NCBI GenBank assembly: GCA_045805745.1
Contig: JBJMKP010000001.1
Span: forward strand, 86,054 to 150,053
DNA from: Solirubrobacterales bacterium
GTDB lineage: Bacteria > Actinomycetota > Thermoleophilia > Solirubrobacterales > 70-9
Direction: 5' to 3'
DNA length: 64,000 nucleotides
Below, piece after piece: positions 26,056-32,243 of this stretch. Positions within the stretch are counted from its first letter, which is position 1; every line of letters starts with the position of its first letter. Position numbers and translations under genes: made by a program. The notes beneath the pieces were generated by a model. It ran no database searches. It was not told the DNA's origin and worked only from the letters and a program-made list of their open reading frames with translations.

Positions 26056-26129
26056 GGTGGCAGTAGCTCAGTTGGTAGAGCTCCGGCTTGTGGTGCCGGC
26101 GGTCGCGGGTTCGAATCCCGTCTGCCACC
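26056..26129 (+). tRNA. tRNA-His (GUG) with encoded G-1
   Basis: G-1 followed by GTGGCAG/CTGCCAC acceptor, anticodon stem CCGGC/GCCGG with loop TTGTGGT, T arm GCGGG-TTCGAAT-CCCGT, discriminator C. Confidence 0.93.
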
Positions 26130-26150
26130 TTTTCTGGGATGGTCCTCTGC

Positions 26151-26702
26151 CTAGGCGTCCAGTTGCTCTCGCGCGTCAGCAATGAGGAAGTCCACCTCTT
26201 GGACGGCTTCGGTGGCCACTTCAACTGAAACATGCGGCTTGAGTTTGTTCAGTGCTTCAGCGCGAGCCTGAACAGACGCGTCCTCACCCTGTTGACGAGT
26301 GACCCAGAGTGCAGTCGCAAGGCGCTCGAGTTCGAGGACTCGACAGTTGGCAATTTGGCCCACGATCCAATCAAGGCGCGGTCCATACTTCCTCATGGTC
26401 CGCTCGAAGCGCTCCTCTAGCTCCTCGCCGCGAGGCATGGTTGCCAACCGCGGCCCATACGGCGGTGGCTGTGCCTCTCGGGTTAGTAGTCGATCGGACT
26501 GCATTGAACCCAGCTCGTCTCGCAGTTCAAAGCTGAACGGCCCGTGCTTGTAAAGGATGAAACTGAAGTCAAGAGGCACCTCTAGGAGCTCTCGAACTAG
26601 ATAGGTGGCCTTCTGGAGATGGGTCTCTCCCGCCCAAGACCCTTGCTCACGGAGTCGGCGGGTCAGGCTGATCAGGACGGCCTCTTGGGCAAGCCTGTTC
26701 AC
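26151..26702 (-). CDS. small protein with Panacea/SocA (DUF4065)-like motif pattern, coupled to the HD gene
   Basis: GETHLQKATYLV...FILYKHGPFSFELRDEL resembles the LQKLLY...W.yGPv..el pattern. GTGA overlap with the upstream HD gene. Confidence 0.7.
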   Translation of the reverse strand: MNRLAQEAVLISLTRRLREQGSWAGETHLQKATYLVRELLEVPLDFSFILYKHGPFSFELRDELGSMQSDRLLTREAQPPPYGPRLATMPRGEELEERFERTMRKYGPRLDWIVGQIANCRVLELERLATALWVTRQQGEDASVQARAEALNKLKPHVSVEVATEAVQEVDFLIADAREQLDA

Positions 26703-28093
26703 GCTCCCACCCCTTCCTCGTCAGTCTCCATGTCCTCCTCGGCGGCCTGAGCTTCGTAGGCGCTCTCGATGATCTTCTCGCGTTCGGTGTCGATCCATTG
26801 CTCGATCTCCTCGCGCTGTTCTGCTGGTGCGAAAACGTATTCGTCGCGGGAGACGGGAAGATTGGCAAGCACCGAGGACAGCGAAATCGCAGGGACGCTG
26901 CTGCCATCGCGATCAAGGACAGGGAAATCAGCATCGCCCCGCTTAGGGCTGCCTCCATACCGAATGTTTCGCTCTCCAAATGCCTCTTCGGCAGCGCGAT
27001 AAATCGCATTGACCTCGAAGGAGCTGTCTTCGGGTCGGCGCTGGTAGACCACTCGGAAATGATCCCGCTCCAGGATTCTCCGAGCTGAATCGTGTCCCGG
27101 GGCACCTCGGTCTTTGGCTGCACTTCGCATTGCGCTCGTGACCTCTGCATCGGTCAACGCAAGGTGGCCACTGACTTCGATCGGAAATTGACCACCCTCT
27201 AGCCACGCCCCTAAGAAATCCTTCAAATGAAGGTCATAGATGAGGCGGGTGGGATGGAAATAGACCTGACTGAACATAAAGTAGCGGGCGAGCCAAAGAC
27301 CCTCGGCGGACTCGATGCCTCCTCGCTCAATACCTAGCTGGGGCTCCCGCTTCGCTTCGTTTTGCTCACCGCCAGCCTCGGTCGTGGCCGCAGGGAGGAT
27401 GCGAAGGGTTTGAATCAAGCGATGGTGGTCGAAGCGACCGTATGCCACGCCGGTATGGACGCTGTCGCGCAGGAGATAGTCGATCCGATCGGCGCCAAAG
27501 GAGTCCCCAACAAGCATCTCGGCGAGGATGGCCTCCCAAGGCGAAAAGGTCAGGTCACCCCCCAATTTCTCGAGCTTCCGTGGTCCGAGGGCGATCTTGG
27601 CTATGTCCTCAGGGTCAGGCTTATGCGGCATCAAACGCCAAAGCGCTCGCATCTCCTCGGAGCGCAGGATCTCGTAGGTCATCCGCTCGTGGTCATAGCC
27701 CGCGGGCAAGAGCTCATCCTCCGCCGCATGCGAGAAGGGAAGGTGACCCAAGTCATGACAGAGAGCTGCCAGACGAAGAAGCGAGCGCGATACCTGGTCC
27801 TCAAGGCTGTTCTTCTGAGGCAGGACATCTCTGACCTCGTCGGTCACCTTGTCGAGTCGGGTTACGGTGTCGTAGATGCGGCCGACCAGCTCCATTACGC
27901 CCAGTGAGTGCTCGAAGCGGCGGTGGGAGGCACCGGGGTAGACGAGATAGGAGAGGGCGAGCTGATGAATATTTCGCAGCCGTTGAAATGGCTGCGAATC
28001 GATCACCTTCTTCTCGGAGGGATCGAAGGCGATGAAGTTATGGACTGCGTCTCGGATCTCGGGATGCTTTTTAGACACCGGGGCGCAATCCAA
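26699..28093 (-). CDS. SAMHD1-like HD-domain (d)NTP triphosphohydrolase family protein (COG1078 type)
   Basis: FQRLRNIHQL, HRRFEHSLGV, LCHDLGHLPFSH and GADRIDYLLRDS. TTG start at 28093 after AGGAGA; the alternative is GTG at 28078. The track's longer start at 28201 is unlikely. Confidence 0.85.
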   Translation of the reverse strand: MDCAPVSKKHPEIRDAVHNFIAFDPSEKKVIDSQPFQRLRNIHQLALSYLVYPGASHRRFEHSLGVMELVGRIYDTVTRLDKVTDEVRDVLPQKNSLEDQVSRSLLRLAALCHDLGHLPFSHAAEDELLPAGYDHERMTYEILRSEEMRALWRLMPHKPDPEDIAKIALGPRKLEKLGGDLTFSPWEAILAEMLVGDSFGADRIDYLLRDSVHTGVAYGRFDHHRLIQTLRILPAATTEAGGEQNEAKREPQLGIERGGIESAEGLWLARYFMFSQVYFHPTRLIYDLHLKDFLGAWLEGGQFPIEVSGHLALTDAEVTSAMRSAAKDRGAPGHDSARRILERDHFRVVYQRRPEDSSFEVNAIYRAAEEAFGERNIRYGGSPKRGDADFPVLDRDGSSVPAISLSSVLANLPVSRDEYVFAPAEQREEIEQWIDTEREKIIESAYEAQAAEEDMETDEEGVGA

Positions 28094-28268
28094 GCATCTC
28101 CTGCGGTCTGAGACATTTGCGGCACTTCTCAGGTTTCTGTGGATCCCGCCCACTAAAACTGGACTTTGCCGTCGAATACGAACATACGTTCCCATCCTCA
28201 AAGAATGACGGGCGCATCGGACGGGAAAAGCTTCTCAAGACATCCGGTGAGACCGTCATTGTTGCTGC

Positions 28269-29522
28269 TTGGTGATGTCACCTGATCAAGCTAGTCCCAT
28301 GGAGAGCCTGCCGTCTCCCCATCCTTCGCCTGGAAATGGGCAGTTTCTTCCTCGGCTGGGCTACGGCCAGCAGGGCTTGGTTGGCGTACTTGAGGCTCGG
28401 GGGATTCGGACCACCGTGGCGCCGCTCTACTTTTTGCGGGATAACCCCGAGCTCACGCTGATTCCGAACGGGCGAAAGATGGGGACCGTGCTCGATCCCT
28501 ATACCCAGCTCAGGCAGGTGGCGTGGGCTGAGCGCCCAAGCGCCTTTCGGGCTCTTAGCTTCGGAAACGACCCCGAACCTTACGAGCCCGATTCGGCCCG
28601 ACTATCTGACGAGGAGATCTTGCACCTCGCGGTTGATCCCATTAACGAGGCCAGAGGTCGCGGTGGGACTCTTCTTCTTACGACCTCCCATCGGGCTGGC
28701 GGAGTGGGAACCCGTGGACGCGATGTGGAGCTGCTGCTGGCTGAGCTCGGCCTCACTCACTTCGAGGCTGAGGGAATGCGCGAGCCGCCGCCCTTTGCGG
28801 CTGTCGACGTTGCGCGCGAGATCTACGTTGCTCTGGCGGTGCACGTGCGCGATCTCGCTTCTCCGAGTGCTCGTAGCGCCCTTGCTGAGGCCTATCTTGC
28901 CCTTGAGTCCCAAGGCCTCTGGGTCAAGATCGAGGGCTTTCACGAGCGATCCTCGCCCGAACAGATTCGAAATGGCGCCTCCTTCCTGAGTGCTTTGCGG
29001 GAGGGAGGAAAGTCGGTCGTATCTTGTGGATCAGGGCAGCTACACCTTGGCTTACTTGCTGATGATTTCTCGGTGAGTATCGGCCTCGCTGAGAATGAGC
29101 GCTTCCGCGTGCCGGCTCCCTGGCGTAGGACCAACCAGGAAGGCAAAGCCCGCGGGCGCACCCGGATGGCTTATCACCCGAAGTTTCATCGGTCGTTTCG
29201 GGTTGGAAGCGACGATGCCAGAAGAGCTTTCACCGCCGCTCCATGTGAGTGTGAACTTCACGTCGCCTCGACTCCGCCGGACGGGCAGAATGTCGCCCAG
29301 CATGCGGCCATCCTGCGGGCTGAACAAGCCCGCGAGGCCCTGGAAGGAGAAAAAGGTGATCGACGGGAGTGGGTGCTGGCCTCCTCCACGATGGCCTCTT
29401 GGGCGGCCGCGGATGCCGAGTTACCGACTGAGAGGTTTTCGGCGACCGCTAGCTATGAAGCTCTCTTTGCTGGGCTGGATGCAGGCGATGGTCTCGCTGC
29501 TAGCGAGCAAGCCGACTTCTAG
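28269..29522 (+). CDS. orphan 417-aa protein (possible TIM-barrel; CxCxxH...H motif)
   Basis: Long ORF with coding-like composition in the islet. TTG-GTG-ATG start cluster at 28269..28277. No family recognised. Confidence 0.65.
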   Translation: MVMSPDQASPMESLPSPHPSPGNGQFLPRLGYGQQGLVGVLEARGIRTTVAPLYFLRDNPELTLIPNGRKMGTVLDPYTQLRQVAWAERPSAFRALSFGNDPEPYEPDSARLSDEEILHLAVDPINEARGRGGTLLLTTSHRAGGVGTRGRDVELLLAELGLTHFEAEGMREPPPFAAVDVAREIYVALAVHVRDLASPSARSALAEAYLALESQGLWVKIEGFHERSSPEQIRNGASFLSALREGGKSVVSCGSGQLHLGLLADDFSVSIGLAENERFRVPAPWRRTNQEGKARGRTRMAYHPKFHRSFRVGSDDARRAFTAAPCECELHVASTPPDGQNVAQHAAILRAEQAREALEGEKGDRREWVLASSTMASWAAADAELPTERFSATASYEALFAGLDAGDGLAASEQADF

Positions 29523-30070
29523 TTCTCGAGCAGCAGCCGTTCGAGTACCCACTCGCTCATGGTTTGGCCGGCACCAACGGCTGCGACCTCCCAGGCGATG
29601 GCTTGCTCTAGCGGCACTTGATCGATCAACTCCTCAACATTAGAGGCGCCACATCTCGGGACGAGACGGACCGGAATAGCGACGCTGCGCGGAGCTTGCA
29701 ACACCTTGCGGTGCGCGTGACGTCCCACCGTGATCGATCGGAGATAGCGGGCGCTCGCCTCTGGTAGCGCAGTGCCCACGGATACCCAGGGGTGACTTAG
29801 TTCGCGAAGTTGTGGCAGGCGCGTTTTGAGTTGCCCCGCCTCCAGAGCAAGGGATGCCGCGACATCGACGGCAAGGCCCACGCTCGCAGCCCGTTTTGCC
29901 AAGGCCTGAGCAGTGGGAGCCGAGAGCGGCAATGCCTCATGTAGCTCGCCAGGTCGCCGCGGCGTTTCGGCATCCAACAAATCCTCGGGAGCGGGCAGAG
30001 GTGGAAGGGGATCGCTACGCAGAAGCCGTAACGCTCGGGCTGGATCGCGAGGCTTTATGGCTGCTGCCAT
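29519..30070 (-). CDS. orphan 183-aa protein
   Basis: ATG at 30070 (MAAAIKPRD). Minus-strand TATACT lies 7 nt upstream, so apparently leaderless. The stop overlaps the stop of the convergent gene (CTAG). Confidence 0.55.
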   Translation of the reverse strand: MAAAIKPRDPARALRLLRSDPLPPLPAPEDLLDAETPRRPGELHEALPLSAPTAQALAKRAASVGLAVDVAASLALEAGQLKTRLPQLRELSHPWVSVGTALPEASARYLRSITVGRHAHRKVLQAPRSVAIPVRLVPRCGASNVEELIDQVPLEQAIAWEVAAVGAGQTMSEWVLERLLLEN

Positions 30071-30099
30071 TCTAATAAGTATACCAGTATATTTATACA
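30071..30099. promoter_or_regulatory. 29-nt AT-rich divergent switch region with back-to-back -10-like boxes
   Basis: TCTAATAAGTATACCAGTATATTTATACA. TATATT lies 6 nt before the plus ATG, and TATACT (minus strand) lies 7 nt before the minus ATG. Confidence 0.55.
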
Positions 30100-30357
30100 A
30101 TGGCACGTAAGCCTTTGACGGATGAGCAGCGAGCGGAGGGTGCCCGGATTTCGGCCCATCTGCGGGAGACGCGGAGGTCGCTCGGGAGAGAGCAGGTCGA
30201 GATCGCGCGAGGTGCCGGCGTTTCGGTGGACGAGTTACGTGCGATCGAGGGACGACGGGTAGCAACGCCCTCCTTTGTCGTAATCGCCCGCCTGGCAAGG
30301 GAGCTGGAATTGGGGCTTGACCCCTTTGCTCGTGAGGTGCTTCGGTCGGATGACTAG
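30100..30357 (+). CDS. XRE/Cro-family helix-turn-helix protein
   Basis: RETRRSLGREQVEIARGAGVSVDELRAIEGRRVATPSFVVIARLAREL. Confidence 0.8.
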   Translation: MARKPLTDEQRAEGARISAHLRETRRSLGREQVEIARGAGVSVDELRAIEGRRVATPSFVVIARLARELELGLDPFAREVLRSDD

Positions 30358-30426
30358 CTAGGTCGGCGCTCAGCCGGGTTTCACTGAAGCTGCTCGATTT
30401 GAGCCTCCGCGGATTACGCTGACGCG

Positions 30427-31566
30427 GTGCGCTTTCGCCCACAGCTGGACATAGGTGCCGAGGCTCCGGCGGCTGGCTGGGGATGGGTAGCGACGGTGGG
30501 GGTCGTCGGGACGGCGACGTTGGCCGTCTATCCGCTGAAGTCGGTGGCGCCGGTGGTGTCTTTGGGGGTCGTCTACATCCCTGGGGTGCTGCTGGTCTCG
30601 AGCTTGTGGGCTTGGCGGCTTGGGCTGGTGGCGGCGGTGGCGAGCGCCTTGGCCTTCAACTGGTTCCACCTGCCGCCGACGGGGGAGTTCGGGATCGCTG
30701 CCGACAAGGATGCGGTGGCCTTGGTGGTGTTTGTGATCGTCGCTCTCGCTAGCAGCTCGCTGGCCGAGGTCGCTCGGGCTCGGGCCGGGGAGGCGGAGCG
30801 GCGGCGGGAGGAGACCGAGCAGGTGCTGGCTCGCTTGCAGGAGCTGGCGGAGGAGCGGGACCGGATGGAAGGGGAGGCGATCGAGGCGGGCGCCCTGCGG
30901 CGCAGCGACGAGCTGAAGACGGCGCTGCTGCGCTCGGTCTCGCATGACCTGCGGACGCCGCTGACCTCGATCATCGCCGCGGGGACGGCGCTCGACTCTC
31001 CCACGCTGACCGAGGAGGAGCGCCATCAGCTGAGCGAGGCGGTGGTCGCCGAAGGGGGGAGGCTCTCGCGCCTGGTCGAGAACCTGCTCGACGTCTCGCG
31101 GCTGGAGTCCGGCTTGGCGGAACCGCGGCTGGAGCCGGTTGACCTGGCCGGTGTTCTGGGGGCGGCTCGGGAGTCCCTCGGCGAGGACGCCGCTGCGGTC
31201 AGGCTCGGGATCGACGCCGAGATCTCCGCCCTCACCGCCGACCCGGTCCAGCTCGAGCGTGCCTTCGCCAACCTTCTCGCCAACGCGGTCCGCCACGGCG
31301 GCGGGCAGCCGGTCCTGGTCCGCGCCCGCGAGGTCGGCGGCCGCCTCGTCGTCCGCATCGTCGACCGCGGCCCTGGGGTCCCGGAGCCGGAGCGGAAGCG
31401 GATCTTCGAACCCTTCTACCGCCGCGACGACGGCGGCGGCTCCGGCCTCGGCCTCTCGATCGCGCGCGGCTTCATCGAGGCCAGCGGCGGCGAGATCGCG
31501 GTCGAGAGCGTGCCCGGCCAGGGCAGCACCTTCGTCGTCTCCTTCCCGCTCGGGGGGGAGCGGTGA
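30427..31566 (+). CDS. KdpD-family sensor histidine kinase lacking the N-terminal KdpD/Usp sensor domains (DUF4118-HisKA-HATPase)
   Basis: DUF4118-like TM block (FNWFHLPP), H-box SVSHDLRTPLTSI, N-box NLLANAVRHG, G-box GSGLGLSIARG. In-frame stop at 30400. Confidence 0.88.
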   Translation: MRFRPQLDIGAEAPAAGWGWVATVGVVGTATLAVYPLKSVAPVVSLGVVYIPGVLLVSSLWAWRLGLVAAVASALAFNWFHLPPTGEFGIAADKDAVALVVFVIVALASSSLAEVARARAGEAERRREETEQVLARLQELAEERDRMEGEAIEAGALRRSDELKTALLRSVSHDLRTPLTSIIAAGTALDSPTLTEEERHQLSEAVVAEGGRLSRLVENLLDVSRLESGLAEPRLEPVDLAGVLGAARESLGEDAAAVRLGIDAEISALTADPVQLERAFANLLANAVRHGGGQPVLVRAREVGGRLVVRIVDRGPGVPEPERKRIFEPFYRRDDGGGSGLGLSIARGFIEASGGEIAVESVPGQGSTFVVSFPLGGER

Positions 31567-32243
31567 ACGACCAGCCCCGGATCCTCGTCTGCGACGACGA
31601 GCCGCAGATCGTCCGTGCCCTGCGGGTGATCCTCCGCGACGCCGGCTTCGAGGCGGTGCCCGCCGCCAGCGGCGAGGAGGCGCTCGACCTGGTGGCGGTG
31701 CGCCCACCCGAGGCGGCAGTCGTCGACCTGATGCTGCCCGACCTCGACGGGGTGGAGGTGACGCGGCGGATCCGGGAGTGGAGCGAGATGCCGATCATCG
31801 TCCTCTCGGCGATCGGCGACGAGGACAAGAAGGTCGAGGCGCTGGTTGCCGGCGCCGACGACTACGTGACCAAGCCGTTCGGGCCACGCGAGCTGGTGGC
31901 GCGGCTGGAAGCGGCCCTGCGCCGGGCGCGGCCGGAGACGGAGGAGCCGGCGATCGAGGTCGAGGGCCTGGAGATCGACCTCGCCGCCCGCCTGGTGCGC
32001 CGCGACGGCGAGGAGGTCCACCTGACGCCGACCGAGTTTGAGCTGCTCCGCGTCCTCGTCCGCAACCGCGGCCGGCTGATGACCCACCGGGCGCTGCTGG
32101 TCGAGGTCTGGGGGGTCGAGTACGAAGACGACCTGCAGGTGCTCCGCGCCCACATCGCCAACCTGCGCCGCAAGATCGAGCCGCCGGACGGCCCGCGCTT
32201 CATCCGGACGGACCCCGGAGTCGGCTACCGCTTCGCCGCCTGA
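31563..32243 (+). CDS. kdpE: OmpR-family response regulator, KdpE-like
   Basis: Closely parallels E. coli KdpE from memory: REWS.MPIIVLSA..DEDKKVEAL.AGADDYVTKPFG, EEVHLTPTEF, GVGYRF. GTGA overlap with the kinase gene. Confidence 0.85.
   Translation: MNDQPRILVCDDEPQIVRALRVILRDAGFEAVPAASGEEALDLVAVRPPEAAVVDLMLPDLDGVEVTRRIREWSEMPIIVLSAIGDEDKKVEALVAGADDYVTKPFGPRELVARLEAALRRARPETEEPAIEVEGLEIDLAARLVRRDGEEVHLTPTEFELLRVLVRNRGRLMTHRALLVEVWGVEYEDDLQVLRAHIANLRRKIEPPDGPRFIRTDPGVGYRFAA

Follow-up and report, generated by a model that had tools for sequence, protein, structure and literature searches.

This study concerns two overlapping genes in a 64,000-nt stretch of DNA from a Solirubrobacterales bacterium (assembly GCA_045805745.1, contig JBJMKP010000001.1, positions 86,054 to 150,053 of the forward strand), which is called the window below. 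The first gene encodes an HD-domain enzyme (HD) and the second a small partner protein (SM). A preliminary description based on the letters of the window had read the two as a possible nucleotide-depleting toxin with a dedicated neutralizer or sensor. The features of the pair, in window coordinates, are the following.

26699 to 28078, minus strand: HD gene, SAMHD1/EF1143/Aq_1910 class (COG1078), proposed effector ("toxin"); assigned by Pfam matches, PDB matches, and invariant motifs.
26151 to 26702, minus strand: SM gene, 183-aa partner, proposed neutralizer or regulator of the HD enzyme; assigned by the DarG models of PADLOC and NCBIfam, AlphaFold2 (AF2) modeling with Foldseek, and profile matches.
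26699 to 26702, minus strand: GTGA stop/start overlap, the coupling junction; read directly and found as a conserved junction in homologous loci.

The HD enzyme, its small partner protein, and their gene junction

The full COG1078/SAMHD1 motif set had been claimed for the HD protein, and all of its motifs were found in the translation (FQRLRNIHQL, HRRFEHSLGV, CHDLGHLPFSH, and GADRIDYLLRDS). Pfam matches were obtained for HD (3e-11) and, in the C-terminal region, for HD_assoc_2 (3e-8). Sequence matches in the PDB were Aq_1910 of Aquifex (2hek, 3e-44), EF1143 (4e-24), and SAMHD1 chains (~1e-20); 2hek, the closest solved relative, was deposited as a "hypothetical protein." The metal ligands of the H...HD...D type correspond to H62 (RFEH), H113-D114 (CHDLGH), and D202 (GADRIDY), align to those of EF1143 and 2hek, and are invariant in 28 homologues. 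Among these bacterial and archaeal homologues (alignment A3), no variation was seen in RFEH, HDxGHxPFSH, and DRxDYLLRD, and the substrate-pocket motif FQRLR..QL, which is present in the window protein, is invariant or nearly so. The matches to 2hek, EF1143, and SAMHD1 together with the invariant motifs bear out the COG1078-type assignment. Membership of the HD protein in the SAMHD1/EF1143/Aq_1910 class is thus supported by sequence comparison, and the enzyme looks catalytically competent.

The start of the HD gene is most likely the GTG at 28078 (459 aa, beginning VSKKHPEIRD), because the N-termini of the homologues in alignment A3 follow the pattern M-A/S-K-x-x-H-E-I/V-R-D-P and because the Joint Genome Institute (JGI) gene call in locus L169 is 457 aa long. 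The TTG at 28093, which had been taken as the start before, is in frame, but the GTG at 28078 fits the homologous N-termini; the finding is unaffected by this choice. The longest open reading frame (ORF), starting from a TTG at 28201, is probably too long. At its 3′ end the HD ORF reads ...GGG GTG GGA GCG TGA on the minus strand, with the stop at 26699, and SM starts with the GTG of GCGTGAAC (26702) inside the GTGA, so that 4 nt are common to the HD stop and the SM start. The overlap reported in the preliminary description can therefore be seen directly in the sequence.

The motifs read in SM were THLQKATYLV and ILYKHGPFSFELRDEL. SM of the window is identical to the hypothetical protein ACJ75T_00655 of a Solirubrobacterales metagenome-assembled genome (MAG), and an exact-sequence look-up gave no record. 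The family has more than 1600 proteins, with 1696 clusters at 50% identity. Only two PADLOC models were matched by SM, namely DarG (7e-10, profile positions 164 to 318 of 329) and PDC-M19A (1e-5); the DarG model of NCBIfam, NF048014, was matched with 7e-9 at positions 169 to 322 of 338. The AF2 model of SM, built from 31 homologues, had a predicted local distance difference test score (pLDDT) of 95.6, and Foldseek placed 7yk3_B/D on top (template modeling [TM] score of 0.67 to 0.70, probability of 1.0, full length). These were the sole significant PDB matches, and 7YK3 is the C-terminal domain (CTD) of DarG in complex with DarT. A profile of 135 SM-family sequences (A2) matched 7yk3_B with an E value of 0.009, and hhalign gave 82% and aligned the xQKxxY...GPxS core. 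PDB sequence searches with SM alone and with a 31-sequence profile yielded nothing, and DarG was reached only by the 135-sequence profile and the fold search. The sequence identity between SM and DarG is ~18%.

Judged by profiles and predicted fold, we read SM as a free-standing relative of the DarG CTD that probably belongs to the wider Panacea superfamily but lies outside PF13274 as currently modeled. It is not a DarG, because it has only 183 aa, because its matches to the DarG models are confined to their C-terminal portion, and because the upstream gene encodes an HD enzyme and not DarT. DUF4065 proteins are stated to be homologous to the DarG CTD in a 2026 paper (PMC13621843). In DarTG, this domain is described as binding and inhibiting the toxin (Deep et al. 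2023, cited in PMC13621843; PMC8832971). The Panacea-like character that had been ascribed to SM held in part. Eight further family members, scored one by one, had no PF13274 match, as was the case for SM of the window. On the other hand, PF13274 was the sole recurrent Pfam family across 135 members (seven weak matches, best E value of 0.0025), the automatic UniProt name "Antitoxin SocA-like Panacea domain-containing protein" is carried by two members from Pelotomaculum (clostridial), and the homology to the DarG CTD points the same way. The two members named in this manner do not score on the current PF13274 model. The viral fold library BFVD contained no convincing match for SM; its sole Panacea match was marginal (rank 39, E value of 1.8, TMt of 0.55). 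Across 135 bacterial and archaeal members (A1, A2), the residues W23, G25, E26, T27, H28, Q30, K31, Y51, G54, P55, S57, F58, Y82, G83, L125, E126, T130, A131, K155, P156, H157, and A163 are at least 90% conserved.

In its N-terminal half, the SM model is winged-helix-like, and PadR and MarR regulators follow DarG in the Foldseek list. Many type II antitoxins double as repressors, and SM might mainly be a winged-helix DNA-binding autoregulator of the operon instead of a direct inhibitor of HD. However, the PadR/MarR matches are weak (E > 0.1, TM of ~0.2 to 0.35), and in structure only the DarT-binding domain of DarG is matched significantly. Moreover, a dedicated HTH_31 regulator is already present in the islet described below, and a pure regulator would need neither strict coupling to HD nor co-divergence with it. 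We consider an autoregulator of this kind very unlikely.

Obligate pairing and asymmetric decay of the two genes

A scan with the SM profile and pattern gave matches in ~516 of 185,579 species genomes, and the best 80 loci were examined. They include Solirubrobacterales, Planctomycetota, Deltaproteobacteria, Bacillota, Acidobacteriota, and archaea of the Methanosarcinales/ANME groups. In ~68 of the 80 genome loci, a full HD homologue with 45 to 81% identity was located directly upstream on the same strand, and several of the others contained HD remnants. For the reverse direction, metagenomes were scanned with the HD alignment, which gave 73 loci with room after the HD gene; SM was located directly downstream of HD in all 73, and no orphan HD was seen among them. 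The combined set comprised 168 genome and metagenome loci. At 71 homologous junctions, the two genes overlapped or were at most 5 nt apart in 70 cases (−4 in 25 loci, −8 in 16, and −1 in 9), usually with a GGAGG-like motif upstream. The translational coupling suggested by the window sequence is thus conserved throughout the family. With the HD matches and the size of the SM family, this conservation places the features of the pair well outside what chance would give. Furthermore, the pairwise distances of HD and SM were correlated (r = 0.68; Mantel test, 0/999 permutations). The two-way linkage, the conserved junction, and the correlated divergence show that HD and SM form an obligate, co-evolving, and translationally coupled unit. 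With two adjacent, co-oriented, and overlapping genes that move together, the pair has the cassette arrangement of type II toxin-antitoxin (TA) pairs of the PanAT kind. In locus L012 (6001 to 8672), the order is SM-HD-SM, the two SM copies flanking a single HD gene being 54% and 55% identical to SM of the window. Viral contigs contained only eight family matches, which we counted as neutral, and the plasmid collection a single distant one (24.7% identity) on a Methanomethylovorans plasmid with uninformative context.

The preliminary description had presented the combination of the two proteins as a new pairing, which it is not. Dataset S1 of Kurata et al. 2022 (PNAS, PMC8832971) lists a predicted PanAT cluster, pT33/T34, consisting of an HD domain-containing protein (YdhJ according to CDD) and a Panacea antitoxin, as untested. 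Its five entries are from thermophilic Clostridia (Ammonifex, Desulfofundulus, and three Caldicellulosiruptor), and the main text is silent on the pair (PMC8832971). In these entries a COG1078 (YdhJ) HD gene is likewise followed by the antitoxin, which there is domain-only Panacea, in the order toxin-antitoxin and with gaps of −4, 0, and −17 nt. In contrast, the pair of the window comes from an actinobacterium, its small protein is missed by the current PF13274 model, and three additional genes accompany it. The two are likely members of the same family. No model for the HD-SM pair exists in PADLOC v2, and our literature search found no paper testing an HD-Panacea pairing; a survey of dGTPases (PMC13519002) is silent on it. 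Several SM-family members bear the IMG label "uncharacterized protein YwgA," the link to chromosomal YwgA of Bacillus resting on the COG-derived name alone; nothing functional was found in the literature on YwgA and YwfO.

The two partners differ in how they are lost. SM genes without HD were located beside a short prokaryotic Argonaute (pAgo) with ATPase (L034), a BsoBI restriction-modification pair (L026), PDC-M02B (L027), and a DdmE-like gene (L049). In about 10 to 15 of the 80 genome loci, HD was decayed by nonsense mutation, frameshift, or truncation while SM was intact. Nonsense mutations were found in three loci and frameshifts in four, and in several loci only the C-terminal end of HD was kept; SM was intact every time. 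The premature stop codons are located at position 4976 in L052 (TAG), 1353 in L077 (TGA), and 1082 in L020 (TGA). Those in L052 (Eubacteriales) and L077 (ANME-2) replace the same conserved tryptophan codon (YW before the LCHD motif). This asymmetry of orphans and decay is TA-like and is what one would predict for an enzyme that does harm once SM is missing.

Recoding of the stop codons in L020, L052, and L077 as pyrrolysine or selenocysteine was rejected, as the codons differ (TGA, TAG, and TGA, respectively) and two of them replace the conserved tryptophan codon. Apparent HD stops in L058, L071, L048, and L067 were not counted as inactivation, being alignment-edge artifacts or natural stops. 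In L172 (2110 to 4975), HD is split into calls of 156 aa and 339 aa, followed by SM (181 aa). The gene after SM in this locus (225 aa) has a weak precomputed match to PF13274 (SocA_Panacea); recA and a SWI2/SNF2 gene of the type-I-restriction-like kind are found in the vicinity.

Genomic surroundings and companion genes

The pair is part of a low-GC islet that contains three further genes. The features outside the pair are the following.

26056 to 26130, plus strand: tRNA-His(GTG), left edge of the islet; found by ARAGORN, its 3′ end 20 nt from the SM stop.
26131 to 30400, no strand: islet of ~4.3 kb with ~60% GC in a genome of ~70% GC and with five co-traveling genes; from composition profiles.
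28269 to 29522, plus strand: P3, 417 aa, tRNA-guanine transglycosylase (TGT)-like TIM barrel by AF2 and Foldseek, with CxCxxH...H; divergent from HD.
29519 to 30070, minus strand: P4, ~183 aa, probable start at ATG 30070; convergent with P3, with a 4-nt 3′ overlap.
30100 to 30357, plus strand: P5, 85-aa XRE/HTH_31 regulator (Pfam HTH_31, 8.6e-7); divergent from P4.
30064 to 30106, no strand: face-to-face promoter-like sites between P4 and P5; consensus scan, two sites versus 1.0 expected.

At the tRNA-His gene, the GC content falls from ~0.70 to 0.74 to ~0.57 to 0.62; the islet starts 1 nt past the tRNA and ends near 30400. A search for an att-type duplicate of the tRNA-His end found none, and the islet yielded no integrase. 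In relatives, the block of four to five genes is located at other genomic positions, with unrelated flanks and next to other tRNAs (Leu, Pro, Val, Phe, Arg). In L173 (3271 to 11116), an HD-P3-HTH cassette is located beside Replic_Relax, TraG/TrwB-like, and SLT genes, surroundings that suggest a conjugative element; the gene after HD was called at 95 aa and may be a truncated partner.

Over the 80 genome loci, the only recurrent neighbors were HmaA (SNF2 helicase, 3e-196) and HmaB (DUF1156 methylase, 6e-117), which bracket HD-SM in about a dozen of them. Among the 168 loci, 18 contained an HmaA homologue and 20 an HmaB homologue, as counts without a formal background comparison. Cassettes embedded between the Hma genes are often defence systems ("guilt by embedding"; Payne et al., bioRxiv 10.1101/2024.01.29.577857), and HD-SM occupies the same position between HmaA and HmaB as the validated cassettes among the Hma-embedded candidates (HEC/PDC) of that study. 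They differ in that HD proteins are missing from HEC-01 to HEC-09 and in that the HD-SM copy of the window is outside an Hma locus. In the Hma locus of a member of the Methanosarcinales (L048, 1275 to 11674), the genes directly after HD-SM encode DarT and a macrodomain protein of 426 aa, all between HmaA and HmaB. The C-terminal part of this macrodomain protein is unlike the canonical DarG CTD, and a stand-alone DarG-CTD-like gene is located directly upstream of DarT. About one-quarter of 104 immediate neighbors were defence or mobile genes (Hma, other methylases, AAA_21, BsoBI, DarT, transposase, resolvase).

The preliminary description had expected variable islands and had named a genome-wide placement beside housekeeping nucleotide-metabolism genes as speaking against its proposal. 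The islet at a tRNA gene, the shifting sites, and the Hma embedding show a mobile, defence-like context, and no consistent link of HD-SM to nucleotide-metabolism operons was found among the 80 genome loci and the 104 immediate neighbors. A small subunit of ribonucleotide reductase (RNR) is encoded ~5 kb from HD-SM in L169 (13886 to 14857), and NrdD is the immediate neighbor of one member of alignment A5. The proximity of RNR genes to these two loci may be coincidence, yet it is relevant to an explanation based on deoxynucleoside triphosphate (dNTP) metabolism.

Such an explanation would make HD-SM a heteromeric housekeeping enzyme, in which HD is a phosphohydrolase of the YwfO/YdhJ type that sanitizes or balances the (d)NTP pool and SM is its obligatory regulatory or specificity subunit, with no TA or immune role. 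The high conservation of both proteins, the invariant polar motifs of SM, the YwgA label of several family members, which is a COG name derived from a chromosomal Bacillus gene, and the RNR genes near some loci (the NrdD neighbor and the small subunit in L169) agree with it; the stoichiometric coupling would fit an enzyme complex, and YwfO-like HD proteins have been discussed as housekeeping enzymes (PMC4993169). It accords poorly with the patchy spread over ~516 of 185,579 species genomes, which in combination with identities near 50% between archaea and bacteria indicates horizontal transfer. Further points against it are the location in a low-GC islet at a tRNA gene and at different genomic sites in close relatives, the Hma embedding and the adjoining restriction-modification, pAgo, and DarT genes, and the repeated pseudogenization of HD with retention of SM. 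We judge a housekeeping function to be unlikely.

P3 had no match in Pfam (including TGT), PADLOC (including the DpdA models), NCBIfam, or PHROG, and its family comprises only 67 proteins. The AF2 model had a pLDDT of 90.9, and the best Foldseek matches were tRNA-guanine transglycosylases (E of ~1e-6, TM of 0.5 to 0.56, 11% identity); a Zn-type CxCxxH...H site is conserved in the family. P3 was divergently adjacent to HD in every locus examined, that is, in 12 loci reached through HD or SM and in 4 of 4 reached through P3 (L001, L002, L004 to L007, L014, L031, L089 to L091, L160, and L171 to L174). As P3 is always beside HD and HD-SM often occurs without P3, P3 depends on HD-SM and not the reverse. 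Its modeled fold suggests that P3 may exchange bases in nucleic acid, as a not yet described enzyme that the HD-SM module has recruited.

On another reading, HD-SM would in this lineage be half of a larger system of four to five genes and would not act autonomously here. P3, together with P4, would modify nucleic acid or exchange its bases, as DpdA does in 7-deazaguanine DNA modification, and HD would supply, remove, or police the corresponding nucleotides. The confident TGT-like fold with the conserved CxCxxH...H site in a family of just 67 proteins, the location of P3 beside HD in the 12 + 4/4 loci, and the joint movement of the whole block argue for this possibility. However, more than 90% of the HD-SM loci are without P3 or P4, which indicates that the pair is self-sufficient elsewhere. 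In addition, P3 matches neither the PADLOC DpdA models nor Pfam TGT and resembles its best structural matches with a TM of only ~0.5 and 11% identity, and the islet lacks genes that would make preQ0 or queuosine. A larger system of this type is in our view quite improbable.

For P4, no family match was obtained in Pfam, PADLOC, NCBIfam, or PHROG. Its ORF has 307 codons, of which only residues 161 to 300 are conserved (10 loci); start codons were scanned, and the source gene calls have 118 aa in L169 and 188 to 191 aa in L171 and L174. P5 is conserved in L001, L002, L090, L169, L173, and L174. The -10 box of each of the two promoter-like sites between P4 and P5 ends 6 to 8 nt before the start codon, which weakly suggests leaderless transcripts for both genes, the consensus match being at background level; promoter and terminator scans in general were at background level. 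At the right edge of the islet (window positions 30427 to 32243), a 379-aa histidine-kinase ORF resembles what we take to be the C-terminal part (transmembrane, HisKA, and ATPase regions) of KdpD. The next genes presumably encode a response regulator of the KdpE type and a Kup-type transporter, without kdpFABC, and the islet may have truncated kdpD.

A proposed toxin-antitoxin-like module and candidate for nucleotide-depletion immunity

We favor, with a probability of roughly 0.55, the reading that HD-SM is a two-gene, horizontally mobile, TA-like module and a probable candidate for anti-phage defence. The HD triphosphohydrolase would hydrolyze dNTPs and thereby starve DNA replication. SM, made in a fixed ratio with HD through the stop/start overlap, would bind the HD enzyme directly and keep it off, and a trigger such as phage infection or loss of the partner would free HD, leading to dNTP depletion and a halt of replication. 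The proposal of dNTPs as the HD substrate, of HD toxicity, of binding and inhibition by SM, of the trigger, and of an anti-phage role draws on the biology of DarG and PanA (PMC8832971) and on precedents for dNTPases in defence.

Nucleotide depletion is an established antiviral strategy, and anti-phage dGTPases exist (PMC13519002; PMC12265719). The HD protein shares with SAMHD1, EF1143, Aq_1910, and these dGTPases the HD catalytic core and the substrate-pocket motif FQRLR..QL. Those dNTPases lack a protein partner, whereas HD of the window, whose activity is predicted from sequence, is paired with SM and carries an HD_assoc_2 C-terminal region. In the Clover system, the SAMHD1-like toxic dNTPase CloA is restrained until infection by the nucleotidyltransferase CloB, which makes inhibitory p3diT (PMC12265719). 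Clover resembles HD-SM in being a two-gene system with a partner restraining the dNTPase, such a restraint being a proposal in the case of the window pair. The partners are different, as CloB is a nucleotidyltransferase of the Pol-beta type, whereas SM has a DarG-CTD fold and no nucleotidyltransferase match. Since SM does not look like an enzyme in this comparison, restraint in HD-SM would be exerted by protein-protein contact. With DarTG, the pair shares the match of SM to the DarG CTD in sequence and fold over its whole length; in contrast to DarTG, the pair has no macrodomain and no DarT, and the partner of SM is an HD hydrolase instead of an ADP-ribosyltransferase.

Several observations weigh against a TA-like defence module. 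The HD protein stays below all curated dGTPase cut-offs of NCBIfam (TIGR01353, 33.7 bits versus 152; NF041026, 21 versus 400), so that comparison with Dgt profiles, proposed earlier as a check, did not place it there, and the PADLOC dGTPase model gave only a weak and partial match (34 bits, residues 25 to 128). By these profiles the HD protein is outside the curated Dgt and anti-phage dGTPase families. SM of the window has no Pfam match at E ≤ 1, PF13274 included. Its near-invariant polar motifs (WxGETHxQK, YKHGPFSF, ELERLATA, and KPH) hint at a ligand-binding or catalytic site and would be no less fitting for a subunit that senses a ligand or takes part in catalysis than for a simple inhibitor. 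Both HD and SM are 45 to 55% identical between archaea and bacteria, which is unusually conserved for a TA pair; the strong conservation of SM is the chief caveat to the favored reading. Most HD-SM loci are not beside recognized defence genes, and the remaining immediate neighbors are miscellaneous ordinary or housekeeping genes (MFS, FtsH, NrdD, UvrA). Finally, some of the HD frameshifts may be assembly errors of the MAGs.

A further-reaching form of the favored reading regards HD-SM as an autonomous and widely transferred immune module in which SM is the gate or sensor, with the polar motifs as trigger-binding site, and in which P3 and P4 form a second arm in Solirubrobacterales. We put this forward tentatively, as possible though rather doubtful; if it were true, HD would be the first effector of nucleotide depletion under the control of a protein antitoxin and not of nucleotides.

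The described feature is real, and its preliminary reading is largely upheld. The pairing has been catalogued before and is not a surprise, and HD-SM as a TA-like module is a solid experimental candidate. To the five-row supplementary entry, the present work contributes the family's size and distribution, the obligate linkage in both directions, the structural assignment of SM to the DarG CTD by its modeled fold, the orphan asymmetry, the Hma embedding, and an actinobacterial five-gene variant with a predicted TGT-fold protein. Nucleotide depletion is common to animals (SAMHD1) and bacteria (dGTPase, dCTP deaminase, Clover), and cells must keep self-toxic enzymes of this kind silent. HD-SM represents a genetically simple case, consisting of one HD enzyme and one small DarG/Panacea-type protein, in a family that spans bacterial phyla and methanogenic and ANME archaea. 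If the proposed function is correct, the Panacea/DarG-CTD antitoxin fold would reach a metabolic hydrolase, and if SM directly gates HD, a protein-based mode of control would be added to nucleotide-depletion immunity.

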